Source: Plasmodiophora brassicae (Eukaryota). Taken from it: a DNA stretch of 64,000 nucleotides. Below, piece after piece: positions 29,946 through 51,132 of the stretch (its first letter is position 1; each line of letters starts with the position of its first letter). Below the pieces are notes generated by a model. It was given only the letters and a program-made list of their open reading frames with translations. It did no database searches and was not told the origin of the DNA. A program made the position numbers and the translations under genes. The stretch spans positions 1,240,001 to 1,304,000 of the forward strand of contig CP145411.1 of NCBI GenBank assembly GCA_036867785.1. The letters are read 5' to 3'.

Positions 29946-30099
29946 ACGCTGCTAGGCTGCAGGCCGCAGCTCATCGCGTTCGTGCTACAGTCCCGCCCGA
30001 CCTCTTCGTGATCACCGACGCGTTCGTCGCCACCCTGCTCGTGGTCAATGCGTCGCCGAACAGGATGCCGTCACCGCCAGCCTGCACAGCCGTGGCCTG

Positions 30100-32010
30100 G
30101 AGACACGTCCAACAGTGGCCGACATCGTGGCCTCATTAACAAGCGAGGAGTCTTGTATTCGTGAAGCGCGCGGCCGCGAGCAGAGTCCTTCGAAACGGCG
30201 AATCGAGTCGCGACGAACCAGACGGACCCGCACACCACATCATTCAAGCGCCACGATCCGTGCATGCTGCACCCGGATGCCAATCCGAAGCACACGAACG
30301 GCAAGTGTCGCGCCCAGCGTCATCTGTGTCACACGAATACAAAGACATCGTCGGACGCGTATACCCCTCTGTTCGAGCAATGTCAGCCGGTCACCCCGTC
30401 GTAGACACGACGTTAGTTGGCCTACTGGATTCCGACTGTTCCACAACGACAACACCCCTGCGGCGGCATCTCAGCTGTTATCGACGAGGCTCTGGACCGG
30501 AAGTCGAACTAGCTGACCTGTCGCGTACGAGCACTTCCGGTCGAGGCATGACGTCATTCGGCAAGGATGCCCAGGCGACGAGTATCGACTCGCTGCACGT
30601 TCCACGACTTGGCCAAGCGCTCGTTTCAATCGGCCAGATCACCCGATCAGGACACAAGATCGTGTTCGACGGCGCCGCCGCGACGATCTACTCGAAGGAC
30701 AGCTGGACGGCACCTACCGGGCAGCCAGTGGCGATCAGCAACCGTGAAGAAGACAACCTGTACCGGATCGCACTATCAGCTCCACCCACCAACATCACGC
30801 AATCGACTGTACGAGCCTGTTCCCTGATCGTATCCGACATCGCCTGTCGCGCCGCAAAGGTCACCGCTGCATCTCCCGATCTGTGGCACGCACGAATCGG
30901 CCATCTCGGTTATTGCAGTCTGCAGATCCTGCAGAACCGCTGTCGTGGCATGAAGTTCGATGGCTCCATTCCCAAGCGTTCGGACCGGTGCCCATGCGAA
31001 GCCTGCCTCCTCGTCAAAGGCAAGCGTTCCTCATTTCCTCCGAGTAAGTCGCGGGCACGTCGTGTCGGCGATCTCGTGCACAGCGACCTATCCGGCCGGT
31101 GGCCCGTTATCGGCATTGGCGGCTTCGAGTACTACCAGACGATGCTGGATGACTCCACGCGCTACCTGACGGTCTACCTGCTTCGCCGCAAATCGGACGC
31201 CCTCGATGTCATTAAGAACTACGACGCGCGCCTTCGCAATCAGGAAGGGCGAGGTATCGGGGACTTCTAGACCGACGGTGGCGGCGAGTTCAACTCGAAG
31301 GCATGCGTCCTGTTCTACAACACGTCCGGCATCCTGCACCGCAAGTCGGTCCCATACAACCTGAGCAGAACGGCCGCGCCGAAAGCGTCAACTACACGCT
31401 CTGTTGCATCGAGCTAGCGATCCGGTGTCGCGCCCACATGCCCGACTTCACGTGGCCCTGGTCGCTGTCTTACTCTGCCGTCCTGTACAACATCCACCCG
31501 AGATCCGTCCTTCCCGAACGTCGCACATCGTTCGAGGCAGCTCGCCGCGCCCGACCTGACGTCTCGGCCCTTCGTGTCTATGGTTGCGATGCCTATGCCA
31601 TGCGACCACATCCAGCCACGAAGAAGCCGAGCAAGTTGGAGCCGGGTCGTGTTCGCGCTGTGTTCATCGGTTTCACGCCCGGCATGAAGGCGTGGCGGTT
31701 CTACGACGTGGACCGCGAAGACACGTTCGAGAGCACGACTGCCGAATTCCTGGAGAACTCATTCACATTCGGTTTTGGAAGATCGATCTCGGCCAGTTCA
31801 TCATCAGCGCCAACATCCAGTCCCGAGTCGAGCCCTGCGTCGAACGTTGACACGATCGTCCCGACGTCCATCTCTTCCGACGCCATCATGGCACCTCTAC
31901 CATCGACGTTAGCATCCTCTATCGCAACAGCCCCTCCCGAGCCTCCTTCACCTCCCGCCGCGTCATTGCCTTCCGAGATCGTCCGACCGTCACGATCACC
32001 GTCTCCTGAC
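30100..32010 (+). pseudogene. Copia protease-integrase fragment, paralogue of 36480-41435
   Basis: LLDSDCSTTTTP, LWHARIGH..CPCEAC, VHSDLSG, stop at the QTDGGGE motif, frameshifted integrase. Confidence 0.85.
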
Positions 32011-32049
32011 CCTGCATCCCAGAACGCGGACGCCCGTGCGCTGCACAGG

Positions 32050-33307
32050 CATTGGTGACGGGCAGACATGGCGCGAACCGGGACGTACTGATCAGGTTGC
32101 GACGATGTATTCGATGTCGTCCGCCACAACGAGCGCTGTAGGAAACAGTTGCCATTCGTGTGCGGCTTCCTCAAGGTCGTATGTAGGACGCACAGTCCAT
32201 CGCGTTCGGGAGCCTTGATCGGGTGTGCGGTGGCGTTTGCACGGTTCGCCGTTGCGAACGATATCTCCCGGTCAGCATGAGCCTCTTGAATGCGCTGCTC
32301 TTCTGATGTGAGCGTGGACACGACCTCAGTGACGGTAGGCCGCGGTTCGAGTCCACGACTGTGCAGGTTGGATGCGGCCGTGTCTAATTCTGACGAGGCG
32401 TTGCCAGCCATCAGGACAGCCAGGAAGGAATCCGTCATGTGAAGCATGTCGTTCGGGACTGTTGTACGGAAACGTTGGGCAGCGGCTTGCAGACGAGCCG
32501 CGTACAAGGCGACCGATTCACCGGCTTGCTGTCGAACACTGAACAAATCTTTAGAAGCACGAATGACAGACGAAAACGTGCAGGGTCGCAGCATGCGGAA
32601 GAGCGCGCGCCAGCATTGCGCCGATGTACCGGCGTACAGCAAGTTGTAGCCGATCAGAACGGTCTTGTCGACCATCTGAAACAAGAGTATCTCCCGAGCA
32701 GTTGCCTCCAGATCCGCGTCCACATTGTCGGGGATACTCGGAGTCGGCGATCCGTCCAGATCGATGCCGACGATTCCCGCGAATCCACGGTTGGTAAACC
32801 AAGACGCGGCGGCGGGCGCCCAAGCGGCAAACGATTCGTGCTTGCCGTCGAACCGAGGCGGAGGCACGCGATCTGTACCTGGACGCACTACGCCGTCCAC
32901 AATGGTTGGGCGAGGCTGCGTCGTCGGCGTCGTGGCGATGCAGGAGTACGATGCGGTTTGCTGTCGCAGGAATGCGATGCGCGCGATCTTCTCCTGTCGC
33001 TCGGCCTCAGCGAGCTGCGCGTCGAGATCTTGGACATCTGACTCCGCCGTTCGGCCGCGATCGGCCATGACGTTGGACGCGAGCGAGACGCCCAGAGCGC
33101 GGTTACGACTGTTAATCTGAAACGACGAAATCAGAGTGAGATATATTGATGGATATAGAGCGAAGATATTGGGTGTGACGGGCAACGTCGTAGACGTGAG
33201 ACGCGGTGCACGTTACATCATCGCGGGCGGCGCTGACACCAGACTTGCGGAGTGCGTGGCAGCGTCGGTGTGCTGCACGAGTGTGCTGCTGGATATGGAG
33301 TTCGACA
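32050..33307 (-). mobile_element. 5' end of a related copia: LTR (33118-33307), PBS (33104-33117), gag from ATG 33068
   Basis: LTR begins TGTCGAAC like the 36253 LTR and carries the same PBS. Gag PPRFDG..FAAW..LTSEE is homologous to the 36480 gag. Joined to the inverted fragment at about 32010. Confidence 0.8.
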
Positions 33308-34049: not shown

Positions 34050-36252
34050 AGCTGCAATACCAGTGCTGACCGCGCGCGCCAACGTCACTGGTTCACGTTC
34101 GACCGATGTGGTATTGTAGACTGCAGAGTTGCGGCCGTCATGTTCGCGCGCCCGACGATAAAACCAGGTGCGCATCCTCGATCTTCTTGTCGTACGCGAC
34201 CTTGGAGGTGACAGTCATCACGTTGTTCGGCACCACTTCGAACACGGTGGCCACATGGAATCTTGGTTCCCAGGCTGATATCCCTTATCTAACAAAACAA
34301 TGTTCAGGTGGATGATGTCAACGATATATGGCAGCACATACCCTTGTTCAGGACGAACCGCGGTAGAACGAAACCGAAGGGCGCGTCGCTCGCATGCAAT
34401 TTCTGCCAGCGGGAAACGCGAATCAACACGATCGACGACGGCTCTGGTTCACGACGATACTGCCAATTCAAGTCGAATTGCACGAATGTTGATATGGAAC
34501 CCATATACAGACCGTCGCCATCAAAGTCGACAACAAACCGGGAACTGCACGACTTGGGGTACGACCTATTCCGTGACTGCGTCACGGAATTTGCAGTTTC
34601 CTACAATGCAGCGACGGTTACTCAACGGGAAACAGCGTTTAACAAAACCACCGATGACCAATATTTGTTCCGAACTACTTTAGACACTCGTTGGAAGGCA
34701 GATGTCAGGAGACGACACGACGGACGACTATTGTCTCCACAACACGGAATTAACCGACTGCCGAAGCCGTCGGTTGCCGTGGACGTTTATTCAAACTGCG
34801 CGGCTGCGCGACCCCCGTCGCGGCCGTGCCATAACAGTATAGTCCCCTGTCATCGGGCCGGCCTGCGGGGTGGCTTTCGCCACTTCGGCCCCGGCTTGGT
34901 TGGGTACCGAGCGTGGAAGTTAGCCAACAATTCGTTGAGCCCACCTGTACCGTGTAGTTCTCCTGCGGGTTCCCACGTGCGTTCAGAAGGCGGGTACCCC
35001 TCCCAGTCGATCAAATATTCCAATCGGGAACGGCGATATCGAGAATCGAGAACATCGTGAACGATGAAGAGGGGAGCATCGTCATCCGCGGGAAGAATCG
35101 GTGGAGGAGGAGGTTGAGTGGGTTGGCGACGTAAGGCTCGAGTTGAGATACGTTACATTGTGGATACGGAACTCGGCAGGAAGGTCGAGTTGAAAGGCAA
35201 CCGGATTGACGAGTTGACTGATAGGGAATGGCCCTTAAAATTGGTAGTCGAGCTTCGCGCAGGGTCGCAGAGTTTTCAGGGAGCCGCGACGTAACATCAC
35301 TAAGTCGCCCACCTGAAACTTCGGAGACGTTTGCCGCTTCGCGTCGGCGAATCGTTTGGAATCGACAGAAGCTCGAGTCAATTGGCGGGTCAAGAAGTTG
35401 CGAATCCTCTGCAAGGACTCAGCTCGCTCGTCGGCAGTCGGATTGGCGCTGGTAGACGGTCGAGGTTGCACGTCCATCACACGTGGATGGTAGCCATAAT
35501 TCGCGAAAAACGGTGACATACCTGTCGCTGCATTGTTGTACGAAAATTCGGCTACGGCAAGGAGCGGATGCCAGTCGTCTTGTAAGTAGTTGACGTACGC
35601 ACGGAGATACTGTTCCATGACTTGGTTCACCCGCTCGGTTTGGCCATCGGATTCTGGGTGCCGCGAAGAAGACAGGTTGCGTTGCACGCCGAGACGTATG
35701 AGAAGTTGCTTCCAGAACTTAGCGATGAACTGAGGCCCTCGGTCCGACACGGTATCGTCAGGGAGGCCATGTAAGCGGAAGACATTTGCTAGAAACAAGG
35801 CGGCAAGGTCGACAGATGATATTGTTTCGTTGCAAGGAATAAAATGCGCCATCTTGGAGAGGCGGTCAACGACGACGAGGATGGAGTCATACCCGTTCGA
35901 GCAGGGAAGCTTAACCACGAAGTCCATGGAAATGGACCGCCACAGAGTCGTCGGCAGAGGGAGTGGCATGAGTAATCCGAAGGGATTGTGCCGAGCCGTC
36001 TTAGTCCGACGACACGTATCGCAGGAGAGCACGTAGCGGGTTACGAAAGGGGTTAAACCCGGCCACCAAAATTCGCGGCGAATTAACTGCACGGTTTTTC
36101 GAATACCGAGGTGGCCCGCCGTGCCATTATCGTGGAAATAGCGAAGAATGTCCAGTTTGCAGTCATCGCCAGAGACAACCACAGAATGTCCACGGTATAG
36201 AACGTCGTCTCGGACGCTAAAGTGGCGGCCGCTCGGACGATGAAGTCGCTGA

Positions 36253-39200
36253 TGTCGAACAACGTATCCACTACGACCAGCAGCACATGCCTGCAGCACG
36301 TGAACGCCGTCACGCACTCCGCGACTCCGTGCCCGCCGGCGTTGGCAACCGTTACACCGTCGGCGACTACGTCGCCACTGTAACGTCCGCCGCACACGCC
36401 GTACGTAATACATCCACTTCATTATTGTCCTTCTCAGATTAACAGTCGTATAGGCGCAGGCGCTGAGCCTCTACTCGCCATGGCCGAGCGCCAGGCGACG
36501 CCTAACACGGATGACGACCCGCTGCGTCATCTGTCGCTCGAGGAGATCGACACCCGAATTGCCGAAGCGGAGGCAACGATCGCCAGGCAGGAGAAGATCG
36601 ACCGTCTCCGTGTCCTGCAGCAGCAGCTGGCGCGTCCGACCAGCTGTCCATCGACCCCGGCCATGCCGATCATCGCCGAGGCGCACAGCCGAAGCGACGC
36701 AGGCCGACTGCCCATGCCCAAGTTCGACGGTACTCCCGACTCGTTCACGTCCTGGGTTCAGACAGCTGCACTCTGGTTTCGCAATCGTGGGTACGCGGAC
36801 GTCATCGGGATCAACGAAGATGGCTCGCCGACTGCGACAACCGGTACGGCACACGACCCAGCTCTCGAGGCAGCCGCGCGCGAGATTCTACTCGTCCACA
36901 TGCTGGACCACAAGATCGCGTCCGCATTGTCTTTGTTTCAGGCAGGCTCGGCTGCCAAGTGCTGGCGCGTGCTGTTCCAGGCGTACAGCCCGTCGTCGCT
37001 GGCATCGGTCGTGCGCGCCGTCCGCGACCTCGTCACGGTCCAGCACATGCCCGGCGAGTCGGTCGCCACGTACGCCGCCCGAGTTCAAGCAGCGGCTCAT
37101 CGCGTCCGGTCGACGGTACCGACCGAGATGCTGTCCCTCACCGACGCATTGGTCGCCGTCCTCATCTTGGCCAACGCATCATCCGATCTCGACGCCGTCG
37201 TCGCTGGCCTGCACAATCGTGCTCTGGACACGCTGCCCAGTGTCTCCGAGGTCGTCGGGTCGTTGACAAGCGAGGAGATCAGGGTCCAAGACGTGCGGGA
37301 CCGACACGACGCGTTCCAAACGGCCAACCGCTCCAGTTGCGCCACATCGACGCGTCCCCGTGGACCACGACGCAACGAGTCCTGCGTCTTCCATCCCGGA
37401 TCCAAGCACACTAACGGCGAATGCACGCTGCAACGACACATCTGGTACCGCGACAGCAACGCGAAAAGCAATACATCCTCACCAACGTCCAACGAGTATC
37501 CAACGTCTGGCGCTCATCCGATCGATCCGGCGCCCGAGCCGATGCGTGCTTTGTCGGCACGCCACGCCATCGACGTGTACGCGAACTCAGTAGGCCTACT
37601 GGACTCAGCGTGTTCCACGACGATGACGCCCCTGCGCCGACATCTCAGCTGCTATCGCCAAGGCACCGGACCGGAAGTTGAGCTAGCCGATCTGTCGCGT
37701 ACGACCACTTCCGGTCGAGGCGTGACGTCATTCGGCATGGATGTCCAGGCGACGAGTATCGATTCGCTGCACGTTCCCCGACTTGGCCAAGCGCTAGTAT
37801 CAGTTGGCCAGCTCACCAGATCAGGTCACAAGATCGTGTTCGACGGCGATACCGCGAAGATCTACTCGGGGGCCAACTGGACGGCGCCCGTCGGTCAGCC
37901 AGTGGCCGTCAGTCAACGAGGACACGATAACCTGTACCGGATTCCATTATCCGCTCCAACCTCCGCGCCCGGCACACTTCACTCTGCCCGAGTCTGCTCC
38001 TTGATCGCATCCAGCGTCTCATGCCGCGTCGCTAAGGTCACCGCCGCAGCTCCAGCTGTCTGGCACGCTCGAACCGGCCACCTGGGTTACGGCAACCTGC
38101 GCATCCTGCACAAACGTTGTCGTGGCATGAAGTTCGACGGGCCAATCCCGAGGCCGCAAGATCGATGTCCATGCGCTGCATGTTTACTCGCCAAGGGCAA
38201 ACGGTCATCATTCCCTCCCAGTACGTCGCGCGCGCGTCGTGTTGGCGATCTCGTCCATAGCGATCTGTCCGGACGGTGGCCTGTCGTCGGTGTCGGCGGC
38301 TTTGAGTACTACCAGACCATGCTGGACGATTCCTCTCGGTACCTGTCCGTCTATCTGCTACGTCGCAAATCGGAGGCGCTCGACGTCATCAAGCACTATG
38401 ACGCGCGTCTTCGCAACCAGGAAGGACGTGGTATCCGGACGTTCCAGACCGACGGTGGCGGCGAGTACAACTCCAAGGCGTGCGTCCTGTTCTACAACGA
38501 GTCCGGCATCCTGCACCGCAAATCTGTCCCGTACACGCCCGAGCAGAACGGCCGCGCTGAAAGCGTCAACCACACGCTCTGCGGTATCGAAAGCTCAATC
38601 CGGTGCCACTCTCGCATGCCTGACTCCACGTGGCCCTGGTCGCTGTCCTACTCTGCGATACTGTACAACATCCACCCGAGATCAGTCCTTCCCGGGCGTC
38701 GCACATCGTTCGAGGCTGCTCGTCGCGCCCTACCTAACATCTCGGCCCTTCGTGTCTACGGTTGCGATGCCTATGCCATGCGACCGCATCCAGCCACGAA
38801 GAAGCCGAGCAAGTTGGAGCCTCGTCGTGTTCGCGCTGTGTTTATCGGTTTCACGCCCGGCATGAAGGCTTGGCGGTTCTACGACGTGGACCGGGAAGAC
38901 ACGTTCGAGAGCACGACTGCCGAGTTCCTGGAGACCTCGTTCACATTCGGCTTTGGAAGATCCAGCCCTGCTAGTTCATCATCAGCGCCACCGTCCAGTC
39001 CCGAGTCGAGCTCTGCGCCGAACGTTGACACGATCGTCCCGACGCCCGTCTCTTCCGACGCCGTCATGGCACCTCTACCATCGACGTCAGCATCCTCTCT
39101 CGCAGCATCCCCTCCCGAGCCTCCGTCACCTGCCGCTGCGTCATCGCCTTCCGAGATCGTCCGACCGTCGCGCTCACCGTCTCCTGATGACGTATCCACC

Positions 39201-41488
39201 GACGAAGATGATGATGACGCTGAAGATGATCCCGACTACGAAGGTTCGGCGTCCAGCAACGACTCTCCCAACGAAGCTGCCGACCCCGACGTCCACGACA
39301 ATTCCGATGCTGCTGATATCGTTGACCACAATGTCATCGACGTGCCACGCCCTCGCCGATCGAATCGTCGTCGTCAACCGCCTGGTGAATGGTGGAAGGC
39401 GCCGGAGGCGGCCAATCGTTCGTCGACACGGTGGTCCTCGACGGTCGACGCCTGGTTCCAGAATCCGACCCTAACGTTCCCGACACAGCGCCCTCCTCGT
39501 CGCTCCCGCCGACTGATCCGGCATTGGCAGCAGGTTGAGGAGCGCCGTCTGATCGATCAGGCCATCAGGTCCAACCGTCCGACATGTCGCGGCGCAGCTG
39601 CCAAGGCATGTCGAGCCAAGGTATCCGCCCCGATCGACCCAGCCCGTCTACCACGACCCGACCTGTCGAAGCTGAAAGCGACCGACATTCCCGTACCCAA
39701 CTCAATGGCCGATGCCCTCTCATCACCTTTCGCTGGCCACTGGTGGGACGCCGCCGTCACCCAGATGGCAACACTGGACGCCAAGGACACGTTCGGCCCG
39801 CTAATCGACCTGCCGAAAAGTAAGATCGCTGTTGGCGCCAAGTGGGTGTTCCGAGTGAAGTCCTCGCTCAGTGGCAACGGTGGCATCCGCAAGTTCACCG
39901 CCCGACTCTGTGCTCAGGGCTTCCGACAACGCCCCGGCATCGACTTCGACGATACGTTCGCGCCGACCGCCCGTGCCACTGCGTTCCTCGTTATCCTAGC
40001 GCTCGCGGCGCAGCACGGCCTGCATCTTCGCCAGGTCGACTGGGTGGCCGCATACCTGAACGCCGACATGCTCCATGATGTTTACATTCGTCAGCCGGAT
40101 GGCTTCACCGATCATCACGTCCCGTACCGAGTTCGTCAACTGCAAAAGGCCCTTTATGGAACGAAACAAGGCGCCGAACGTTGGTACAAGACGCTTCGGG
40201 AGATGCTGTTATCACTCGGATTCGAATCGATCATCGCGGACCCCTGCGTCTTCCGGTACGATCGCGATGGAAAGTTCATGATCATGTCGGTGCACACCGA
40301 CGACGGTCTGCTGGCGTACAATGACGTCCCGTTCGCGGAATCCGTTCTCGAGAAGCTCTCCACGATGGCCGAGATCACCGATCAAGGTGAACCGTCGACC
40401 CTGCTTGGCATGCGCATCCGACGCGAACCTGGCACCGGCGCCATCACCCTTGACCAAGCCGAGTACATCGAGAAGGTGTTGAGCGACTTCAACATGTCGC
40501 ATTGTCATCCGGTCGACACGCCGCACCAGCCTGGCGTTCACCTATCAACGACAATGAGTCCACAAAGCGACCTCGACCGTGACGAAATGGCGACCAAGCC
40601 GTACCTCAAACTTATTGGCTGCCTGACATGGCTCGCCCATCGATGCCGTCCCGACATCGCGTACATAACGAATGTACTGGCCCAATTCTCCTCGAATCCC
40701 GGCATCCAGCATTGGCGTGCGGGGCAACGCGTTCTTAAGTACCTCGCCGGCACCATGACGCACGGCATCCGATACGAACGCCAGCCCGAAGATCGTCTGA
40801 TCGCATACGCCGACGCTGATTGGGCATCCGACCCTGACACGCGACGGTCGCGCTCCGGCCACATCATCCTGCTGGCTGGCGGCCCCGTGCACTGGCAGTC
40901 ACGTCGCCAAGACCTGGGCGCAGTCAAAGTTAGCTTATCGTCCACACATGCAGAGATCAAGTCGCTGTGTGCTGTTACCCGCCAGCTGGCCTGGATCCGG
41001 TCATTCCTGACCGAAATCGGCTTCGCACGCTCCAGTCCGACGATCGTATACGAGGACAATCAAGGCGCGAAGGCCTGGTCTGGCTATCGTCGGATGGATG
41101 ATCGCACGAAGGACATCGAGGTGCAGTTTCACTACACCCGGGAGGCCGTCGAGGCCAGTTTGATCGTGGTCCACAAGTGCCCGTCCGCCGAGATGGCTGC
41201 AGACTACCTCACGAAGCCCGCTCTCAGCACCTCGTATCATGCGAACCTGCTCCTGGCCGGCATCATCGACACAAGTCCCAGGCCGTGTGCTGCTGGAGGG
41301 GGCGTGTCGAACAACGTATCCACTACGACCAGCAGCACATGCCTGCAGCACGTGAACGCCGTCACGCACTCCGCGACTCCGTGCCCGCCGGCGTTGGCAA
41401 CCGTTACACCGTCGGCGACTACGTCGCCACTGTAACGTCCGCCGCACACGCCGTACGTAATACATCCACTTCATTATTGTCCTTCTCA
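36253..41488 (+). mobile_element. Full-length Ty1/copia LTR retrotransposon
   Basis: 184-bp LTRs 36253-36436 and 41305-41488, identical by eye, TG...CA. 5-bp TSD GCTGA. PBS GATTAACAGTCGTA and PPT GGAGGGGGCG. Confidence 0.97.
36480..41435 (+). CDS. Copia gag-pol polyprotein (1651 aa, uninterrupted)
   Basis: Order gag, PR (LLDSACST), IN (WHARTGH..CAAC, HSDL, TDGGGEY, QNGRAE), RT (KWVFRVK, ARLCAQGF, KALYGTKQ, HTDD), RNase H (YADADWA, EDNQ, ADYLTK). Confidence 0.95.
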   Translation: MAERQATPNTDDDPLRHLSLEEIDTRIAEAEATIARQEKIDRLRVLQQQLARPTSCPSTPAMPIIAEAHSRSDAGRLPMPKFDGTPDSFTSWVQTAALWFRNRGYADVIGINEDGSPTATTGTAHDPALEAAAREILLVHMLDHKIASALSLFQAGSAAKCWRVLFQAYSPSSLASVVRAVRDLVTVQHMPGESVATYAARVQAAAHRVRSTVPTEMLSLTDALVAVLILANASSDLDAVVAGLHNRALDTLPSVSEVVGSLTSEEIRVQDVRDRHDAFQTANRSSCATSTRPRGPRRNESCVFHPGSKHTNGECTLQRHIWYRDSNAKSNTSSPTSNEYPTSGAHPIDPAPEPMRALSARHAIDVYANSVGLLDSACSTTMTPLRRHLSCYRQGTGPEVELADLSRTTTSGRGVTSFGMDVQATSIDSLHVPRLGQALVSVGQLTRSGHKIVFDGDTAKIYSGANWTAPVGQPVAVSQRGHDNLYRIPLSAPTSAPGTLHSARVCSLIASSVSCRVAKVTAAAPAVWHARTGHLGYGNLRILHKRCRGMKFDGPIPRPQDRCPCAACLLAKGKRSSFPPSTSRARRVGDLVHSDLSGRWPVVGVGGFEYYQTMLDDSSRYLSVYLLRRKSEALDVIKHYDARLRNQEGRGIRTFQTDGGGEYNSKACVLFYNESGILHRKSVPYTPEQNGRAESVNHTLCGIESSIRCHSRMPDSTWPWSLSYSAILYNIHPRSVLPGRRTSFEAARRALPNISALRVYGCDAYAMRPHPATKKPSKLEPRRVRAVFIGFTPGMKAWRFYDVDREDTFESTTAEFLETSFTFGFGRSSPASSSSAPPSSPESSSAPNVDTIVPTPVSSDAVMAPLPSTSASSLAASPPEPPSPAAASSPSEIVRPSRSPSPDDVSTDEDDDDAEDDPDYEGSASSNDSPNEAADPDVHDNSDAADIVDHNVIDVPRPRRSNRRRQPPGEWWKAPEAANRSSTRWSSTVDAWFQNPTLTFPTQRPPRRSRRLIRHWQQVEERRLIDQAIRSNRPTCRGAAAKACRAKVSAPIDPARLPRPDLSKLKATDIPVPNSMADALSSPFAGHWWDAAVTQMATLDAKDTFGPLIDLPKSKIAVGAKWVFRVKSSLSGNGGIRKFTARLCAQGFRQRPGIDFDDTFAPTARATAFLVILALAAQHGLHLRQVDWVAAYLNADMLHDVYIRQPDGFTDHHVPYRVRQLQKALYGTKQGAERWYKTLREMLLSLGFESIIADPCVFRYDRDGKFMIMSVHTDDGLLAYNDVPFAESVLEKLSTMAEITDQGEPSTLLGMRIRREPGTGAITLDQAEYIEKVLSDFNMSHCHPVDTPHQPGVHLSTTMSPQSDLDRDEMATKPYLKLIGCLTWLAHRCRPDIAYITNVLAQFSSNPGIQHWRAGQRVLKYLAGTMTHGIRYERQPEDRLIAYADADWASDPDTRRSRSGHIILLAGGPVHWQSRRQDLGAVKVSLSSTHAEIKSLCAVTRQLAWIRSFLTEIGFARSSPTIVYEDNQGAKAWSGYRRMDDRTKDIEVQFHYTREAVEASLIVVHKCPSAEMAADYLTKPALSTSYHANLLLAGIIDTSPRPCAAGGGVSNNVSTTTSSTCLQHVNAVTHSATPCPPALATVTPSATTSPL

Positions 41489-42203
41489 GCTGACGGGTGC
41501 GGCACACAAACGGGTCGGAAGCTTGGTTGCGGCGGATACGATCGGAGTGCGTCGGTTGGAGTATCGGTCACGTGGGTCTGGACCTCCTGTAGAGGTCCTG
41601 GCCCGAGCCGCGACGGTGGAAGGAGCAGGAGTGACTGCTGGAGCACAACCTCATCCTGATCAGAAGGCGCGTATTCGGGGCGACGAGTCAGGGCGTCCGC
41701 CTTGCCATGAAGACGGCCTGGTCGGTGTTGGATAACGAAATCAAATTCGTTACGCAGTTGGGACCATCGGACTTGACGACGATTCAGTTTGTGAGTGCTG
41801 GTGAAGTACTCCAGATTCCGATGATCGCTGTGGATGACGGTCTGGTGCCGCGATGAGTCCAGGAACTGACGCCACTTCTCGAAGGTCTGGACGACCGCGA
41901 GAAGTTCCTTGTCGTAGATAGGAAAATTGATCTCAGCAGGCGCGAGCTTGCGCGAGAAGAATGCCAACGGGTGAAGTTCATCATCGGGCCCCCGCTGCGA
42001 CAATACCATTGCCACCGCGAAATCGGAAGCAACCGTTTCCACTTCGCACGGGCGATCTGGGTCGAAATGAGCAAGGACAGGGGCTGACGTGAAAGCAACC
42101 TTGAGCGCCGTGAATGCGGCTTCTACCGATTGGTCCCAACGAAACGGCACGTTATCACTGTCAGGAATTACATACATCCAATCCTCACGCCAGTCGGACT
42201 TCA

Positions 42204-42275
42204 GGCGCCGTAGCTGAGTGGTACAGCAGCGGTACGTTCAACCGTTGGCCCTGGGTTCGATTCCCAGCGGCGCCC
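42204..42275 (+). tRNA. tRNA-like gene in the 5' LTR (GTT at the anticodon position, non-canonical loop)
   Basis: Cloverleaf: acceptor GGCGCCG/CGGCGCC, D arm GCTG-AGTGGTA-CAGC, anticodon arm GCGGT-ACGTTCA-ACCGT, T arm CTGGG-TTCGATT-CCCAG. A box TAGCTGAGTGG, B box GGTTCGATTCC, TTTTT at 42279-42283. Confidence 0.8.
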
Positions 42276-42451
42276 GCGTTTTTCAGATTAACAGTCGTAT
42301 GCGCTATACATAGCCATACAGAAATGCGTGGCGCCAATGGGCCCTCTTCCGTAGTAGATCCCAGGACAGACACCATCGTCACACCTGGCTACGGATTGAG
42401 GGGGCGTGTCAGGAATTACATACATCCAATCCTCACGCCAGTCGGACTTCA

Positions 42452-42523
42452 GGCGCCGTAGCTGAGTGGTACAGCAGCGGTACGTTCAACCGTTGGCCCT
42501 GGGTTCGATTCCCAGCGGCGCCC
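42452..42523 (+). tRNA. Second, identical tRNA-like gene in the 3' LTR
   Basis: Same sequence as 42204-42275, followed by TTTTT at 42527-42531. Confidence 0.8.
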
Positions 42524-42596
42524 GCGTTTTTCAATCACGCGTGAGATTTGTCAGCGGTAAGGCCAGTTCTGCGAAGTGGGGAACGAACTTGCGATA

Positions 42597-44735
42597 CCAC
42601 CACGGGAAGATGAATTTGCATGACGGGGAAGAAATTTTTGCATGGCGGGGACATAATTTTTGCATGACGGGGAACAAATTGAAGGATGGCGGGGAACACA
42701 ACGAATGGATGGCGGGGAAGAAATGCGTGGATGAGTGGCCCAAAATAAATGGATCGGCTCGGGACGGACGAGCGGGCCGCCTAACTGTGTACCTACCGTA
42801 CCGTTGCAGGACGACGTCACCAGAACAATGGCAGGGATACAACCGATAACGGTAAGCGGATACCGTACAGTATCGCCGACGGACCTACCGTACCGTATTC
42901 TGACTTCATATCCCACGGTAGGTAGGAGGGTTGCAATCGTCGCAGACGTCCGCTCGTAGGCGAGTCGGTCGTCCTGCGATGAACCCGGAGCGGATTCCTC
43001 GTTTGGACCCTACAATCGCGTCGGACCCTAGGCTCTGTGAAATCGACTGCGAAAAAGCTCGGCAGCGCGCATACCAGCAATTGCAGCAAATGGAGAGCGC
43101 TGCTGACCATGTTCGGGCTGTTGCTGACAGGGCGATCGACCGCATCCATCAAGTCGCCGACCGAAAACGACGCTTCGCTGACGAATTGGTCGAGTGGCAG
43201 GCCCGACTGTCGGCCGACGAAGTCGCTGTCGAATCTGTTCCAGAGCGATTTCGTAAGGCTCTTCTCCCGCGGAAGCCACACATCGACGAAGACGAAGATC
43301 GTATTATGCATGCTCTTGACGGCAAGCGATCGCAGGTGGAGATCGCACGCGAGGTCGGCTGTGCTCAGTCAACGGTCTCCCGTCATTTGAACGGGGTATC
43401 GCAAGCCCGCGACGGTGCTGCTCGAGGCCGACCGCGGAAGCTGTCGGATGAGATGTTGAATGCTGCAGCGCGATTCATGTTTCTGCTCCCTGGTGCGACA
43501 CTGACACTTGCAGCCGCGTTTCTCCAGTTGTCCTACCATGTCGTCGTGTCCCGGAAGACTCTTGGTATACACTTGCGGCGTAGGGCAGGGTTCCGCCTTG
43601 GTGACTTCAAAACCTTCCACGTACAACGCAATGCGCCAGAAACAATCGACAATCGGTTCAGATACATTGCCCGTCTGGAGTCGGAAGAATATCGCCGGAA
43701 GTTCGGCCCGAACCCGCTCTATGACGCGATCTACTACGATGAGATGCCACTGGCTCGGATTGCCAACCGAAAAATCTGGTCCGTTCGCGGTTGGATTCCG
43801 TCTCTGGTTGAAGAATCGGTCAGAGGACGCCACGTTTCGCTTCTGCTTGCTGTGAGCCCAGCAGTTGGGGTTGTATGGTACGAAGTTCTCGATAAGACAA
43901 TTGATGGTGACGCGTTCCTCGCTTTTTGCAACAACTTGGTCAAATCGTATGTGAATACTTCCAGGAATGGTCGCCCACGGCTGTTCATTTTGGATAATGC
44001 TCGATTTCACCATGCTCGCTCGGTGGAGGCCTTTTTCGGACGCGACGAGGTCGCTCGCCACCTTGTCCTTGAGTTCCTTCCGCCATATTCGCCCTTTCTC
44101 GATCCCTGTGAAGAACTGTTCGCGCTTATTAAGATCCGTATATGGCTCAATTGGATTGCCGGTTCCTCGGACGAGCGGTCAATTGCAAGCAGCAAGCAAG
44201 CACTAGTAGAAGAAGTTCGGCAAATAACAACAGACGATATCCGTCAGACGTACGACCACATGAGGGAATTCCTATCGTATTGCAAGGACCGGCGACCTGT
44301 CTTCACCCAAAAGTTGTACGAGTGTGCACACCATGGAGACGAGGAGCGGATGTGTCCGACGGGATCTTTGGAAGTGGATGATTTACTGAACAGTTACCTG
44401 CCCCAGTTTTATGAGGAGTTTACACCGAGCCGTTGTCAGCATCTTCGTGATATGTTTGGTTGTTCACGACTGACTAAAGACATCGTCGAGCGGTTCTACG
44501 ACGCACAGGTGCGTTCTCCGGGAGGCGGCGGCGCCCATGGCACTGTTCGCTGAGCCGCCGCCACGCGCACGCACCTAACGCTCCAGCAATCGGTTCCAGA
44601 GAGACAAAATACATGCATCACGATCCATTATTTTTGTGCTCGTCATCCTTCAATTTGTTCCCCGTCATGCAAAAATTATGTCCCCGCCATGCAAAAATTT
44701 CGTCCCCGTCATGCAAATTCATCTTCCCGTGGTGG
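42597..44735 (+). mobile_element. Tc1/IS630-like DNA transposon
   Basis: TIRs of about 90 bp starting CCACCACGGGAAGATGAATTTGCATGACGGGG with TA TSD. Removing the element restores the gypsy ANFYRKF motif. Confidence 0.93.
42931..44553 (+). CDS. Tc1/IS630 transposase (DD38E spacing); probable ATG at 42979
   Basis: HTH SQVEIAREVGCAQSTVSR, GRPRKL, YYDE, ILDNARFH, FLPPYSPFLDPCEELF. Confidence 0.9.
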   Translation: MQSSQTSARRRVGRPAMNPERIPRLDPTIASDPRLCEIDCEKARQRAYQQLQQMESAADHVRAVADRAIDRIHQVADRKRRFADELVEWQARLSADEVAVESVPERFRKALLPRKPHIDEDEDRIMHALDGKRSQVEIAREVGCAQSTVSRHLNGVSQARDGAARGRPRKLSDEMLNAAARFMFLLPGATLTLAAAFLQLSYHVVVSRKTLGIHLRRRAGFRLGDFKTFHVQRNAPETIDNRFRYIARLESEEYRRKFGPNPLYDAIYYDEMPLARIANRKIWSVRGWIPSLVEESVRGRHVSLLLAVSPAVGVVWYEVLDKTIDGDAFLAFCNNLVKSYVNTSRNGRPRLFILDNARFHHARSVEAFFGRDEVARHLVLEFLPPYSPFLDPCEELFALIKIRIWLNWIAGSSDERSIASSKQALVEEVRQITTDDIRQTYDHMREFLSYCKDRRPVFTQKLYECAHHGDEERMCPTGSLEVDDLLNSYLPQFYEEFTPSRCQHLRDMFGCSRLTKDIVERFYDAQVRSPGGGGAHGTVR

Positions 44736-47135
44736 TAGAAGTTAGCGACCCCGAGAAATACCTGCACCCCGTGGACGTCGGTCGGCTGTTGCCACGAGAG
44801 AATGCAATCGATCCTGGAGGGGTCAACCCGTATCCCGGAGGAGGACACCAAGAAACCTAAGAATTCCACTTCGACCGTATTGAAGACGCACTTCTCCAGT
44901 TTAGCGTGGAGTTGAGCAGTGCGGAGTCGCTCTAGGACGAGACGGACATGGCGTTCATGGTCCTCGGGAGTCGATGAGTAGATCAGGATGTCGTCCAAGT
45001 AGATTACCACAAATACATCAAGGAAATCCTTGAACGTCTCGTTCATGAAGTACTGGAAGGAGGCCGGCGCGTTGGCTAAGCCAAACGGCATGACTAAGTA
45101 CTCGAACAAGCCGTACGGCGTGCGGAAGGCCGTCTTCCACTCATCGCCTTCTCGGATCCGAACTTGATTATAGGCGCTGCGGAGGTCGATTTTCGTGAAG
45201 TTTGTTCCGGAGCCCAGCTGGATCAAGAGCTGGTCGATAAGTGGAACCGGATATCGGTTCTTGATAGTAACAGAGTTTAGACCACGGTAGTCTACGCACA
45301 GGCGAAGACTACCGTCCTTCTTCTTGACGAACAGAATTGGGGAGCCCGCCGATGAACGGGATGGACGAATGAGATTAGCTTCCAGATTGATCTTGAGATA
45401 CTCCTTCAAGGCTTCTTGTTCCCGGGGTGACAGCCCGTACAGACGGCAATACGGCGGGTCGCCACCGGGTTTCAGGTCAATCGGACAGTCGAACGGTCGG
45501 TGATCAGGAAGAGTCGTTGAGTCCGCGTTATCGAAGACGTCAGTAAACTCCTGAGATTGCGGCGGTAGTTCCGCGGCGTGGGCAGCGGAATCGGACGGGG
45601 ACCATGTGTAGTGGATGGCATAGCAGTCTGCGCCGTCTTGCACGTCGTCTAAGAACGGTTCGGCGGAAACAAACGCGATGGAGAGCGGCTCCACAGGTTC
45701 GCGTGGCGGCTCCGTAGTCAACGGATCCGTGCCAACCGGCGACGACGTGGAGGCCTACGGCACGGCAGTCAGCAAGGCGTTGTCGATGACGCAGGGATCC
45801 GGAAGCATGGAAGGCGCACGTCTCGGGGCGGAGCTCTTGGCGATCAATACCAGGAGGGCGACCAGCCCAACGAGCGCACACAGCTGGGAGGCGAGTGACC
45901 CGCGTGGCATGCTGCGCCCTGAGCAGGCGAAGAGGCGCGTCGACCCGCGCGGCGGCGTGCCGGCGAAACCGAGGGAGGTTCTGAACAAGAGGGGGCCGCC
46001 GATATGGGTGCCAAGCACGAAAGAGGCGGAAGCGGTGGCGGAACATTGGCGGTAGCTGCGGTCGTCGGCGCAGGCGGTGCGGCGGAATTCACTGGTGTCG
46101 ACCAGCGGCAGACACAGGCGGCACTAGTTCCGGACCGTCGACCAGAGAAGCAGCCACCGGCACTAATGGCTGGTCAGTAGCAGGCGCAGGCTGCACTAGT
46201 TCCGGAACGTCGACGGCGACCAGAGAAGCACCCACCGGTGGTAACGGCTGGGCAGTAACGGGAGACGACGAGGCGAGGAAGTGATCAATGTCCGAAGGCG
46301 GTGCGTTCGGAAGCGGTCCGGGTTCGACGGGCAACCCGTCGGCGCAGCATAATAACGCGGCCGTGTCAGGAGAGCAGACGGCCGTGTCAGGAGAGCAGAC
46401 GGCCGTGTCAGGAGAGCAGGCGACCGTGTCATCAGAAAGGGCGACCGTGGCAGCAGAGCAGCCAACCGTGTCGGCAGAGCCGGTGGGGTTCCCACCGGCC
46501 CGAGCATCGAGCCACAAACGCGGTGATCCCCGAGTAAGACGTTCGCGTACGGTGCGACGACGCCAGTCGATATCCGGATTGTGCTGTTCGAGCCAGGGCA
46601 GCCCCAGAATTATACGGTGACTCGGAGCGTCAATAACGTTGAGGACAATTGTGTCGTGGAAGGCCCCGTTGACGGAACACGGCAATGGCGACGTCTCCAA
46701 TGTGATCGGTGGCAGGTGACGGCCGTCAACAACCTTGACGGGAATCGGTTGTGCTTTGGAGCGGAGCGGCAGGCCATAGCGGCGGGCGAAACCGGCGTCG
46801 ACGAAGGAAGATGTCGCTCCACAGTCCAAAAGGGCCGTCGTCGCCCACGGGCGATCGCCCGTGGATTGGAAGGGAACGAGTAAATGATGAGATGAATGAG
46901 CAGTTGCGAAACAAAGAGCAGTGACGAGGACAGTGTCGGGTTGCGAGGACGAAGAACATTCGTGTATCGAGAGAGGGTGAGCTGCCAACCCGGGAGCAGT
47001 CACCCTTGACCATTTCCCGGCGGACGATGTGGGCATGTTGCGACCATATGTCCGGGCTGCCGGCAATACATGCACAATCCTTGCCGTTTGCAGCGCTCGC
47101 GCTCCTCCGACGTTAGCTTGGTCCGACTGGCCGGC

Positions 47136-47477
47136 TGTATCATACGTACAGCATAGCAGCACCTATGATGTTGTTCACGGTCATAACCCCTGTCCCGACA
47201 CGGCCCGCCAACATTGCCGATCCGTTCCGGACTAGCACAGTCAGCTGTCCCGCCAGACCAGTCGTGTGTGTCCCAGAATAGACCGCGGACTTCCGGAGAC
47301 CGTCACGGACTCCGGAGACGCAGTGGAGGGCGTGAGGCCAGACGGCCCGAAATAAACCAGACAGACAATAGTCACATACAGGCAACCAGCAGTCAGACGA
47401 CAGGCTGCTTGTCATAGACCGAGGGGCTAGGAGCGAGCTTCTCAACGAGTACGTCTCGAAGCTTGAAGGACGTCACC
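47136..47477. mobile_element. Probable solo LTR (342 bp) inside the gypsy gag
   Basis: Starts TG, ends CC (degenerate CA?). 5-bp TSD CCGGC. Removal restores the gag frame [13 protein letters not shown]. Confidence 0.7.
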
Positions 47478-48394
47478 CCGGCGAGGCATCCGTAGCGAGG
47501 AGCGCTTGTGCCGGGGCATAGAGGGGGGCCAGGCGCGCTGCCTCTTTGACCATGGCGTCGAATGTCGGCGGATTGAGCTTGAAAAGCTCGGTCGAAAGCT
47601 CTGGGACGAGCGACTTGCGGAACTTCGTCGCCAGGCGCTTTGACGGGAGAATGTACTCACCCTTCGAGGCCGACTGTACGGCGTTGTACAGGTACATGAA
47701 CCGACGCAGATGAGCATCGAACGGTCCCGTTTGACGAAGAGCGTCGAACCGGGATTCTATGTAGGGTCTCGACGTCCGGTTCTGGAAAATTAAACCGGAG
47801 CAGCGCGGCGAACGCTGCTGGGGAGGCGGTCGCATCCAGTTGACGAAAAACGAAACGCGCTTCGCCCTTCAGGCAGCTAGCCAGGAGCGCGCGAGCGCCC
47901 GCTGAAAGGGGCTGGGTCGACGAGAGATCGACACGGGCAATGCTAGCGAATAGCGCCAGCCAGTCGCTCGCCGGCAGGTCGTCGGAATTGCCGGAAAATT
48001 CGCTCAACGACACCTTAGTCGTCGTGACAACAGGATCGTTGCGATGTGACGACGGCTCAGCAGATGTTGCCGAGGGATCGGTCATGGGCGTAGGCGGCGT
48101 AGAGTGTGGACTGGCGAGCGCGGTGGTAAAGATCTTCAGCTGCTCCTCAGCGCGAGCCCGCATTTCCGTGAAGAACGCATCCTGTTGGATCTGGAAGGCC
48201 CGTAAGACACCGCGAGGGCGCGATCGGCGGCGTCCACATCGGCCAGGGTCGTTGGGTCGATGGGAGAGGGAGGCGTCGTTGGGCACTTGGCTTCGTCAGC
48301 CGTCGAGCCCGTCGAGCCGGAGCGCGTGACCGTCATCGATACGTACACGATCGAAGAACGAATGGGGCGGACAGGCCGAACGAGAGACGATGCG

Positions 48395-48505
48395 AGGACA
48401 GACGGTGACGACAGACGGCGACAGACAGACGGTGACGAAAGACGGCGACAGACAGACGGTGACGACAGACGGCGACAGACGAGGCGACGACAGACGGTGA
48501 CGAAC
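48395..48505. repeat. Tandem GACAGACGG(T/C)GAC repeats in the gypsy 5' leader
   Basis: Imperfect units of about 27 bp, visible directly. Confidence 0.75.
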
Positions 48506-48659
48506 GGTTAAAGTCGGTTAAGATGTCAGGAGACGACACGACGGACGACTATTGTCTCCACAACACGGAATTAACCGACTGCCGAAGCCGTCGGTTGCCG
48601 TGGACGTTTATTCAAACTGCGCGGCTGCGCGACCCCCGTCGCGGCCGTGCCATAACAGC

Positions 48660-49520
48660 AAACTCCCCCGTATGCAGACTTGTAGTGCGAACAAAATTCA
48701 TCAAAATTCGCCAGGTTGTCCAGCATCATCGCGAAGGTACTAATCCGCCGGTTGGTCGTGACTTCGAAATCCTTCACCAGACATACCGGTACCTCCACGA
48801 ATGGTCATAGGATAAAAACGTCCAGTGCCCAGAGGTTATAATATGGGCATGCAGCCAGCACCGCTCGACGTCTGACAGTTCGTATGTCGAAAGCGGTGCG
48901 CGAACTTCAATGGGCAGCATCATCAGAGTAGCAGGCATAGCGTCTTCGACGCTGCCAGAGTTTTCGCCAAAGAGAAGCATGTTGCCCTTTGCCACCGAAT
49001 AGAACTGGTGATAATGACCTCGTAGGAAAACAGCACCCAAAGTCATCTGGAGATTGCCAGCGATATTAATGGTTGTGAAGACGATAACGAAGTGATTTAT
49101 TCCGACCGACATCGGCGCGAGACGGCGGCGACGTAACGCTATGTAACAGGGGCTTGCCAAGCCGTTACCGACAACGGCGTCTGTGGCGGAGCCTCTGCCG
49201 TGGACGGTACGCAGTCGCACACAGTCACGGCGTCACCGTGTGCCGGTGGTACGACATGGTCCTTGACAATGGTTTGGGAAATCGTCGATTCCAGGTTCTC
49301 CTTCATAAAGAAGATCCAACGCTCCATGGGGAACGTCCAGATAAATCCGTACAAAGGACCCCAACGAAGAATTATGTCGGGTAGATGCACTAAGGAATGC
49401 ATCTGATCAAACATCGTTTGAGGGTTAGAGAAAACAATGATGCTGCGCGCGGGTAGACATACCGAGATCGTGAACAGTGATGGTGGTATGACCGACTCCA
49501 GTCGCGCCAGCGAAATTGCG
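48660..49520 (-). pseudogene. CACTA/EnSpm-like transposase remnant, probably continuing at about 34100-34700 beyond the gypsy insertion
   Basis: MHSLVHLPDIILRWGPLYGFIWTFPMERW matches the HxxxH..GP..WxFPxER motif. Interrupted by the solo LTR at 49074-49268. Confidence 0.6.
49074..49268 (-). mobile_element. Solo copia-type LTR
   Basis: TG...CA with 5-bp TSD ATGGT. Near-identical to 49637-49832. Confidence 0.9.
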
Positions 49521-49622
49521 AACAAATAAATTCCAAGTCTGACAGTGACGCGGGACTGGCACTGGATGGCACCGGCGCGCGGGGCGCCGGTGGGCTCGCC
49601 GCCTCTAAGCGCGTAGAACGCG

Positions 49623-49832
49623 TACGACTGTTAATCTGATGAAGACGATAACGAAGTGATTTATTCCGACCGACATCGGCGCGAGACGGCGGCGACGTAA
49701 CGCTGTGTAACAGGGGCTTGCCAAGCCGTTACCGACAACGGCGTCAGTGGCGGAGCCTCTGCCGTGGACGTTACGCAGTCGCGCACAGTCACGGCGTCAC
49801 CGTGTGCCGGTGGTACGACATGGTCCTTGACA
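49623..49832 (-). mobile_element. 5' LTR plus PBS of a truncated copia-type element
   Basis: LTR 49637-49832 followed on the minus strand by GATTAACAGTCGTACGCG. Confidence 0.8.
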
Positions 49833-50199
49833 ATAATTACCGGATGATCCGGTAATTATGACGAACTCTAATGAATACGTCATTTGTTCTCGCACCTGAG
49901 GTCCGATCAACGCCGGCCGGCTGTTCCGCAGTGTGAGCGTGATGAAAACGGACACACCGAAGAAATTTGGTGAAGTTGCCTATTATAGCCATGACACGAA
50001 CAGATAAAAGGTAGTGGTGGGCGACGCTCCGGATCGGTGCAATGCCACGGTCCAGTCGATTTTAGTCTTGACGTATCATCACATATGTCAGGCGTCGACA
50101 TAGCAGGTCGGCGCCGGAATAAAGTCCGTGCGAGCGGGGACCGACGGCAGTCGGTCAACGCGTCGTCGTATAGTCGTGACAGTATGACCGACCTTCACC

Positions 50200-51132
50200 A
50201 TGGACACTCGTGGAACCCAACGCAACCGCGATCACCAGGACCCCGACGAGGAGCCATTGAACACACCCGTATCGGCGCTGACCAGCACGATCGCGGCGAT
50301 CGTAGCGGAGGCGCTCCAGGCACAGCGCGCCGACATCGACGCCATGCTCCGGCAGCAGCGCGCTGAGATCTTGGCGCAGGTCGCCGCCAGCCCGTCCATC
50401 GTCCCCAAGACCGAAACCATTGATCCTGATCGACCGCCGACTCCCTTGTCGACCATATCGTACTCGACACCAGTCCGGCTGCACACGTTCACGGGCGATG
50501 ACTCGGTCGATCCAATGTCTGCGACGACGTGGTTCGACGAGTTTTGCCGCTTCGCTGACGCGGATCCGACGTCAACGGCACCGCTGTCGAATGCGGCCAG
50601 GAGCCTGTTGGCGTCGAGCCTGGACGGCGTGGCGCTGAAGCTGTACGTGGCTATCAAGCCATCGTCCCCGCAGGCCCTCAAGACAATGCTCCTGGAGAAC
50701 TTTCCGGAGATCACTGCCGCGCGCGCCAAGGCTGAATTTGACGCCCTGCGCCAGACGGGCCCGTTTGCCGGGCATCTCGTGGAGTTTCGTCGCCGCTACT
50801 TTGTCGCTGTCGCCCGCGACCCGGACTGCCGTCTAAGCGACTCCTCGCTGGCCGAGAAGCTGCGCACATCGCTGACCCCTGCGCTGGCCGAGGAGCTGTA
50901 CAAGTGGCAGCTGCGCAGCTTCTCCGCCATGGTGGATAAGGCGGTCCATCTGGCGCCGCTGTTCCCGGTGCCGTCGACTGCGATTTTGAACGTGGCCACA
51001 AGCGCGCTGCAGCCGCTGACCGACGAGGAGCGGGACCGTTGTCGCCGCGAAGGCCGCTGTTTTCGCTGTCGCGAACCGGGACACATGGCGAACCAGTGCC
51101 CCCGGTCCCAGCAGGGAAATGTTCGCGGGTGA
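50200..51132 (+). CDS. Gypsy gag
   Basis: 310 aa, FDALRQTG, CFRCREPGHMANQC zinc knuckle. Confidence 0.88.
   Translation: MDTRGTQRNRDHQDPDEEPLNTPVSALTSTIAAIVAEALQAQRADIDAMLRQQRAEILAQVAASPSIVPKTETIDPDRPPTPLSTISYSTPVRLHTFTGDDSVDPMSATTWFDEFCRFADADPTSTAPLSNAARSLLASSLDGVALKLYVAIKPSSPQALKTMLLENFPEITAARAKAEFDALRQTGPFAGHLVEFRRRYFVAVARDPDCRLSDSSLAEKLRTSLTPALAEELYKWQLRSFSAMVDKAVHLAPLFPVPSTAILNVATSALQPLTDEERDRCRREGRCFRCREPGHMANQCPRSQQGNVRG

Follow-up and report, generated by a model that had tools for sequence, protein, structure and literature searches.

[quoted passage not shown] Helenus elements are 311 to 1263 bp long and have a conserved box A (TRGCY, YGG) and box B (GGTTC), while their target-site duplications measure 5 bp in fungi and plants and 4 bp in animals (PMC10886601). 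The PBSs of Helenus are complementary to tRNA anticodon loops, and tRNA-Asn-GTT was adopted once, in one fungal lineage. In fungi, the PBS is similar to that of Copia families, and dependence on copia is covered in the same article (PMC10886601). The tRNA-like part of the LTR has no complementarity to the PBS, the LTRs are unrelated to those of the partner, and it was judged unlikely by Kojima that Helenus encodes a functional tRNA (PMC10886601). Transcription by Pol III was proposed for Helenus itself, not validated (PMC10886601). Cassandra, with transcripts from a Pol III promoter, is the only TRIMp3 lineage called validated (PMC10886601, Discussion). A repeated independent origin was proposed for Helenus-like elements by Kojima (PMC10886601). 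The hosts given in Table 1 of that article are Basidiomycota, six animal phyla and one lycophyte (Selaginella), and its text makes no mention of "protist", "Rhizaria" or "oomycete" (PMC10886601). In the literature searched, the term "TRIMp3" was used on this subject in Kojima 2024 alone. The same search gave no paper reporting a TRIM or Helenus from Plasmodiophora, although supplementary tables could add entries; passages of two P. brassicae genome papers speak of Gypsy, Copia, SINE, LINE and further broad classes only.

In a 64-kb stretch of DNA of the rhizarian clubroot pathogen Plasmodiophora brassicae (the window, with a G+C of 50–66% in keeping with the genome of this organism), a 375-base element was found which is a genuine TRIM, each of its LTRs containing a tRNA-like gene (Table 1). 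The element consists of an LTR of 127 bp, an interior of 121 bp and a second LTR of 127 bp. The two direct repeats are 100% identical over 127 nt (repeat search, re-checked by script), start with TG and end with CA (TGTC..TCA in the longer form), and the element is flanked on both sides by the pentamer ATCAC. Each LTR begins with 45 bp of unique sequence, followed by a complete tRNA-like gene, the T5 run and the closing CA. The interior is non-coding, the longest ATG-started ORF within the whole element having 63 aa, and without PBS and PPT it had no second match within the 64-kb window (blastn-short). All structural details claimed in a sequence-only reading of this locus, namely the identical TG..CA repeats, the target-site duplication and the non-coding interior, are thereby confirmed. 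The same reading knew of no established TRIM family with a whole tRNA in the LTR, a view that is outdated since the naming of Helenus in Kojima 2024 (PMC10886601).

Table 1. Features of the TRIM and of the two retrotransposons next to or around it (positions within the 64-kb window)
Feature	Position	Strand	Remarks
Intact Ty1/copia, candidate autonomous partner	36253..41488	+	Identical LTRs, duplication GCTGA, one long ORF
Gypsy pol, RT/RNase H junction, split by TRIM	41419..42608	-	RNase H domains; frame continues across TRIM
Target-site duplication ATCAC, left copy	42154..42158	+	Empty-site joint shares 5 letters on both sides
5' LTR, 127 bp, TG..CA	42159..42285	+	100% identical pair; first 45 bp would be U3
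tRNA-like cloverleaf, 5' LTR; candidate Pol III promoter and R region	42204..42275	+	ARAGORN, Rfam
T5 run, candidate leaky Pol III terminator	42279..42283	+	3 nt past tRNA-like end
PBS GATTAACAGTCGTAT	42286..42300	+	Equals copia PBS, 15/15 bases
Interior, 121 bp, non-coding	42286..42406	+	blastn-short
PPT GAGGGGGCG, 9 bases	42398..42406	+	Equals copia PPT at 41296-41304
3' LTR, copy identical to 5' LTR	42407..42533	+	Repeat search
tRNA-like cloverleaf, 3' LTR	42452..42523	+	ARAGORN, Rfam
Second T5 run; proposed end of full-length RNA	42527..42531	+	Script
Target-site duplication ATCAC, right copy	42534..42538	+	Empty-site joint

Two tRNA genes were predicted by ARAGORN in the 64-kb window, both of the Asn-GTT type and both located in the LTRs of the TRIM. 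The Rfam tRNA model matched both LTRs with 57.6 bits (gathering score 29) over model positions 1 to 71 of 71, a positive outcome of the covariance-model check proposed in the sequence-only reading. The assignment, in that reading, of a complete tRNA-like gene of the Pol III type (A box, B box and T5) to each LTR is supported. The stems of the cloverleaf are all paired (7 + 4 + 5 + 5 = 21 pairs, one of them G-U, in the ARAGORN drawing), and an A box (TAGCTGAGTGG) and a B box (GGTTCGATTCC) are present in each tRNA-like sequence. Both T5 runs are located 3 nt past the tRNA-like end and two bases ahead of the terminal CA. A search of the window for 29 nt of the tRNA-like sequence, allowing up to 3 mismatches, gave 2 places, a number reached in none of 100 shuffles. 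Unconstrained MFE folding of the tRNA-like sequence did not return the cloverleaf, whereas the covariance model and ARAGORN do. An Rfam scan by E-value between 41000 and 44000 gave four matches, which were all tRNA-like, with 5S absent. A scan for bacterial-type promoters and terminators, a type of scan not relevant to a eukaryotic host, returned 0 sites.

Working elongator tRNAs carry U33 and a purine at position 37. The anticodon loop of the tRNA-like sequence, ACGTTCA, has C at 33 and C at 37 (ARAGORN drawing) and thus lacks the canonical anticodon loop of a functional tRNA-Asn. Because of these two bases, it is unlikely that the "whole tRNA" is a working tRNA-Asn. The most likely role of the tRNA-like part is that of a promoter. 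The complete cloverleaf, the A and B boxes and the terminator would also be expected if the TRIM were a vehicle spreading a working tRNA gene, with the tRNA as the selected cargo, but the loop with C33 and C37 speaks against it, and this explanation is highly improbable. A functional tRNA is likewise unlikely in Helenus according to Kojima (PMC10886601).

The contigs of four public runs were compared over positions 41900 to 42800. A precise empty site was present in contigs of all four runs, with a joint from 42153 to 42534 at which 380 bases, corresponding to the TRIM plus one pentamer, are skipped and 5 letters are shared. These empty-site contigs are other copies of the same gypsy family or stem from other strains. 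The TRIM was inserted in the manner of an integrase, as shown by the 5-bp duplication and by other gypsy copies in which the site is exactly empty. Contig ends with foreign flanks were located at the LTR edges, namely before 42158 and before 42407 (X1), behind 42286 (X5) and behind 42287 (X1, X5), and five more loose contig ends were counted. Since the foreign flanks begin exactly at the LTR edges, the LTR also borders other sequences, and from the empty site together with the other flanks at the repeat edges it follows that the TRIM arrived by integration and is probably multi-copy. Foreign sequence beyond both LTR edges in the X1 and X5 contigs indicates further insertions, as would be expected of an interspersed family; one copy lies within the 64-kb window. 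The TRIM thus appears to occur at other sites as well, the other copies being deduced from contig ends and one full copy being read directly. The recent insertion suggested by the sequence-only reading is supported by the identical LTRs, the empty site in four of four runs and the other flanks at the LTR edges.

A loose end behind 42299 (X17) was considered as a second interior and rejected; the same letters follow the PBS at 33103 (minus strand), in another copia lineage. Scans of metagenome contigs with an exact 26-nt piece of the tRNA-like anticodon arm and with a pattern running from the B box to the PBS gave 0 stretches each.

Two identical tRNA-like genes 248 bp apart could also result if an ordinary tRNA gene had been duplicated locally in tandem, without any mobile element, which had been named beforehand as the case that would overturn the TRIM interpretation. 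A duplication of this kind has to be set against the TG..CA ends, the 5-bp duplication, a PBS and a PPT equal to those of a copia element, the empty site in 4/4 runs, the foreign flanks and a location within a gypsy pol gene. It is refuted by the empty-site contigs together with the PBS and PPT pattern matches described below, and its probability is practically nil.

The TRIM is located in a Ty3/gypsy element on the minus strand, of which ORFs for integrase (35235–36422), RNase H (41419–42177), RT (44618–45721) and protease (46089–47162) were found. This host gypsy is interrupted three times, by the intact copia (36253–41488), by the TRIM and by a DDE_3 transposon (42596–44735), and the three insertions are independent events. 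In a tblastn search with the pol of a second gypsy, residues 839 to 954 were aligned at 42156–41809 and residues 815 to 839 at 42608–42534. Residue 839 is aligned on both sides, and therefore the gypsy frame runs on across the TRIM, with the pentamer at the joint.

Further repeats and one gene were recorded around the TRIM. The host gypsy extends over approximately 34700 to 48671 (minus strand), with candidate LTRs at 34700–34850 and 48521–48671 (97%), and a second gypsy copy with an open pol of 961 aa is located at 51039–53924. The DDE_3 element, a Tc1/mariner-like DNA transposon, has inverted ends of 97 nt (98% complementary) with TA on both sides, subterminal repeats of 22 bp within these inverted ends and a transposase ORF of 540 aa (42931–44553). 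It sits in the host gypsy 60 bp from the TRIM, and contigs of three runs show the gypsy continuing there. In the gypsy region near the protease ORF (46337–46483), six tandem units of 21 bp, similar to CGGCCGTGTCAGGAGAGCAGA, were found; a seventh copy at 48642–48683, 62% identical, was grouped with these units by the repeat search. Apart from the transposons, an intronless gene for an O-GlcNAc-transferase-like protein with TPR repeats and a Glyco_transf_41 domain is encoded at 14179–16791 (minus strand). Its ORF is 100% identical to a P. brassicae protein over 96% of the length, while the next-best identities are 27–31% (63 proteins with E <= 1e-30). The nearest relatives outside P. brassicae in this search are mostly bacterial or metagenomic with 23–35% identity. 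The label "mitochondrion" given to the P. brassicae protein by one source looks like an annotation artefact.

The intact copia lies upstream of the TRIM, 670 bp separating the end of the former from the start of the latter. Its identical LTRs (36253–36436 and 41305–41488) are 184 bp long and not 185 bp, since the target-site duplication (5 bp, GCTGA) already begins with the 185th repeated base. The single ORF (36480–41435) is uninterrupted and encodes 1651 aa with gag, integrase and RVT_2 domains. The PBS of the copia was located at 36437–36451 and its PPT at 41296–41304. The 15 bases GATTAACAGTCGTAT directly after the 5' LTR are identical in copia and TRIM (15/15), as are the 9 bases GAGGGGGCG directly ahead of the 3' LTR, so that the earlier claim of a PBS and PPT shared with the copia at 36253 holds for all 15 bases of the former and the whole 9-base purine tract of the latter. 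The LTR termini TGTC..TCA are common to both elements, and the duplication has a length of 5 bp in both. The PBS pattern with the preceding CA, CAGATTAACAGTCGTAT, gave 4 matches in the window compared to 0.09 expected, all of them directly behind LTR ends (copia, 36435; TRIM, 42284; copia-type LTRs, 33103 and 49622). The sequence GAGGGGGCG followed by TGTC was matched twice in the window, in the copia and the TRIM only (0.15 expected; 2 of 100 shuffles reach 2). In a four-way alignment of the TRIM LTR with the copia-type LTRs, the invariant columns cluster in the last 17 (TCA and PBS). Homology of the TRIM LTR to the copia-type LTRs was rejected, as the LTR bodies do not align convincingly past the termini. 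Judged from these shared signals, the TRIM is probably copied by the copia at 36253. The closeness of the two elements may be chance, both being located within a transposon nest.

Several other copia-related sequences are present in the window. A copia-type sequence at 30056–32058 (plus strand) is 71–88% identical to parts of the intact copia, and another one at 33103–33307 (minus strand) comes with an LTR of its own, next to which the PBS recurs with one mismatch. A PBS of the Asn-type anticodon loop is therefore common to several copia lineages of the P. brassicae genome. A second short LTR pair (49076–49834, minus strand) is composed of 195-nt repeats, 98% alike, and an interior of 369 bp. 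The LTR of this pair is copia-type, and the PBS of TRIM and copia is found behind its 5' LTR, differing in the last base only. No tRNA was predicted in this LTR by ARAGORN, no clear purine tract was seen, and the flanking pentamers do not match cleanly. This pair probably represents an older, ordinary non-autonomous element derived from the same group of copias.

In its architecture, the TRIM resembles Helenus in several respects. The length of 375 bp falls inside the range of 311 to 1263 bp, with two LTRs and no coding capacity; TAGCT..TGG and GGTTC, corresponding to box A and box B, are present in the LTRs; the PBS follows the 5' LTR and the PPT precedes the 3' LTR; and the duplication ATCAC has 5 bp as in fungal and plant Helenus. 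The agreement is extended to the Helenus elements of fungi (Pucciniales) by a PBS which is common with the Copia superfamily and complementary to an anticodon loop, and by an LTR body unlike the copia LTR. The PBS is of the tRNA-Asn-GTT type, as in one fungal lineage (Kojima 2024, PMC10886601). Differences concern the host, which is a rhizarian protist here and a fungus, an animal or the one lycophyte in Table 1 of Kojima 2024, and the presence of an intact candidate partner with an identical PBS (15/15) 670 bp off in the same genome. Like Cassandra, the TRIM carries a small-RNA gene of the Pol III type in each LTR, with a transcript proposed to run from the copy in the 5' LTR to that in the 3' LTR. 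Unlike Cassandra, which has 5S in its LTRs, it contains a tRNA-like sequence and gave no 5S match with Rfam; Cassandra also has a plant host and no known autonomous partner according to Kojima (PMC10886601). The tRNA-derived SINEs (SINE2) are similar in that the A and B boxes of a tRNA-like head form an internal Pol III promoter, and in being short, non-coding and moved in trans. However, SINEs are LINE-dependent, end in a LINE-type or A-rich tail and have no LTRs, PBS or PPT, whereas the TRIM has all three of the latter and a duplication of fixed length (5 bp), which sets it apart from SINE2.

Taken by its architecture, the element is very probably a Helenus-type, copia-dependent TRIM. The best explanation overall, to which we assign a probability of roughly 0.8, is a Helenus-type TRIM (TRIMp3) in P. 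brassicae with an inferred mechanism involving Pol III and copia. New in comparison with Helenus are the rhizarian host, which lies outside the fungi, animals and plants for which Helenus has been listed, and the location of the likely partner next to the TRIM.

For the transcription of the TRIM, a model with a Pol III start at about 42204 and a leaky first T5 is slightly favoured on the basis of the sequence features. In the 5' LTR, the A and B boxes would direct the assembly of Pol III, and most transcripts would end at the first T5 with a length of about 76–80 nt. A fraction would read past the first T5 and end at the second, giving an RNA of about 324–328 nt. In this long RNA, the tRNA-like sequence and its trailer (about 76–80 nt) would serve as R, with a U5 of a few bases and a U3 of 45 nt. 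The Gag and Pol proteins of the copia, acting in trans, would package the long TRIM RNA. A 3'-truncated fragment of tRNA-Asn(GUU), with the anticodon stem-loop paired to the PBS, would be the primer, as in Ty5, Drosophila copia and fungal Helenus, and integration of the TRIM cDNA would generate the 5-bp duplication.

The reverse complement of the PBS, ATACGA-CTGTTAA-TC, can be read as the 5' strand of a stem, a loop of the Asn-GUU type and the first bases of the pairing 3' strand. The choice of tRNA-Asn(GUU) as the putative primer is based on this CTGTTAA loop. In Ty5 and Drosophila copia, the PBS likewise pairs with the anticodon stem-loop region of a tRNA and not with the 3' end (PMC10886601), although the tRNA is the initiator tRNA-Met there, compared to a loop complement of the Asn-GUU type (CTGTTAA) here. 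Self-priming by the tRNA-like sequence of the TRIM was rejected, the longest run in common with the reverse complement of the PBS region being 4 nt.

Pol III would be expected to end at the T5 of the 5' LTR without reaching the PBS, and therefore a leaky terminator is needed in the Pol III model. Pol II would not be stopped at this position. The same copia-mobilised TRIM might accordingly be transcribed by Pol II or by read-through from a neighbour, for which the surrounding transposon is a possible source; in that case the fold would have come along as a passenger with a captured tRNA or SINE, or would act as an RNase P/Z signal defining the RNA ends, as at MALAT1/mascRNA. None of the 21 stem pairs is broken, even in the acceptor and anticodon stems, on which the A and B boxes do not depend. 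This could point to selection on the fold, but a young capture may suffice to explain it. Processing would be in line with two further Rfam matches between 41000 and 44000, both to mascRNA-menRNA and located on the same bases as the tRNA matches. With 30.6 bits, however, they remain under the gathering score of 42.5, and a match of this kind is expected of any tRNA-like fold. A cut by RNase Z in the 5' LTR would moreover lead to the same problem as the T5. For Pol II, the LTR offers only 45 bp ahead of the tRNA-like part, inspection of the 127-bp LTR by eye revealed no polyadenylation signal, and the transcripts of Cassandra come from a Pol III promoter (Kojima 2024, PMC10886601). Transcription or end formation of this kind is thus rather improbable for the TRIM, and Pol III read-through is preferred.

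A Helenus-type element in P. brassicae adds a rhizarian protist to the listed hosts of TRIMp3 and Helenus, previously fungi, animals and one plant, and a rhizarian Helenus fits the repeated independent origins proposed by Kojima (PMC10886601). A more far-reaching, tentative possibility is that Helenus-type elements arose independently in Rhizaria and that the one in P. brassicae is active now, with the fully paired tRNA-like gene acting within the 127-bp LTR as promoter for Pol III, as R and as leaky terminator, and is copied by the intact copia with priming from the anticodon arm of tRNA-Asn. If this were true, the two elements would be the first pair of a TRIMp3 and its autonomous partner in a single genome, and such elements might account for part of the automatic SINE annotation in the P. 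brassicae genome. The best TRIM-partner pair in the literature comes from two species, compared to one genome here, and with identical PBS, PPT and LTR termini within 6 kb the TRIM and the intact copia form a clean pair for experiments. For the annotation of the clubroot pathogen, it has to be considered that tRNA prediction will yield a tRNA-Asn gene for each LTR and that repeat classifiers may report a SINE. Since the LTRs are identical and empty sites exist, the TRIM family may mark recent insertions among isolates of P. brassicae.
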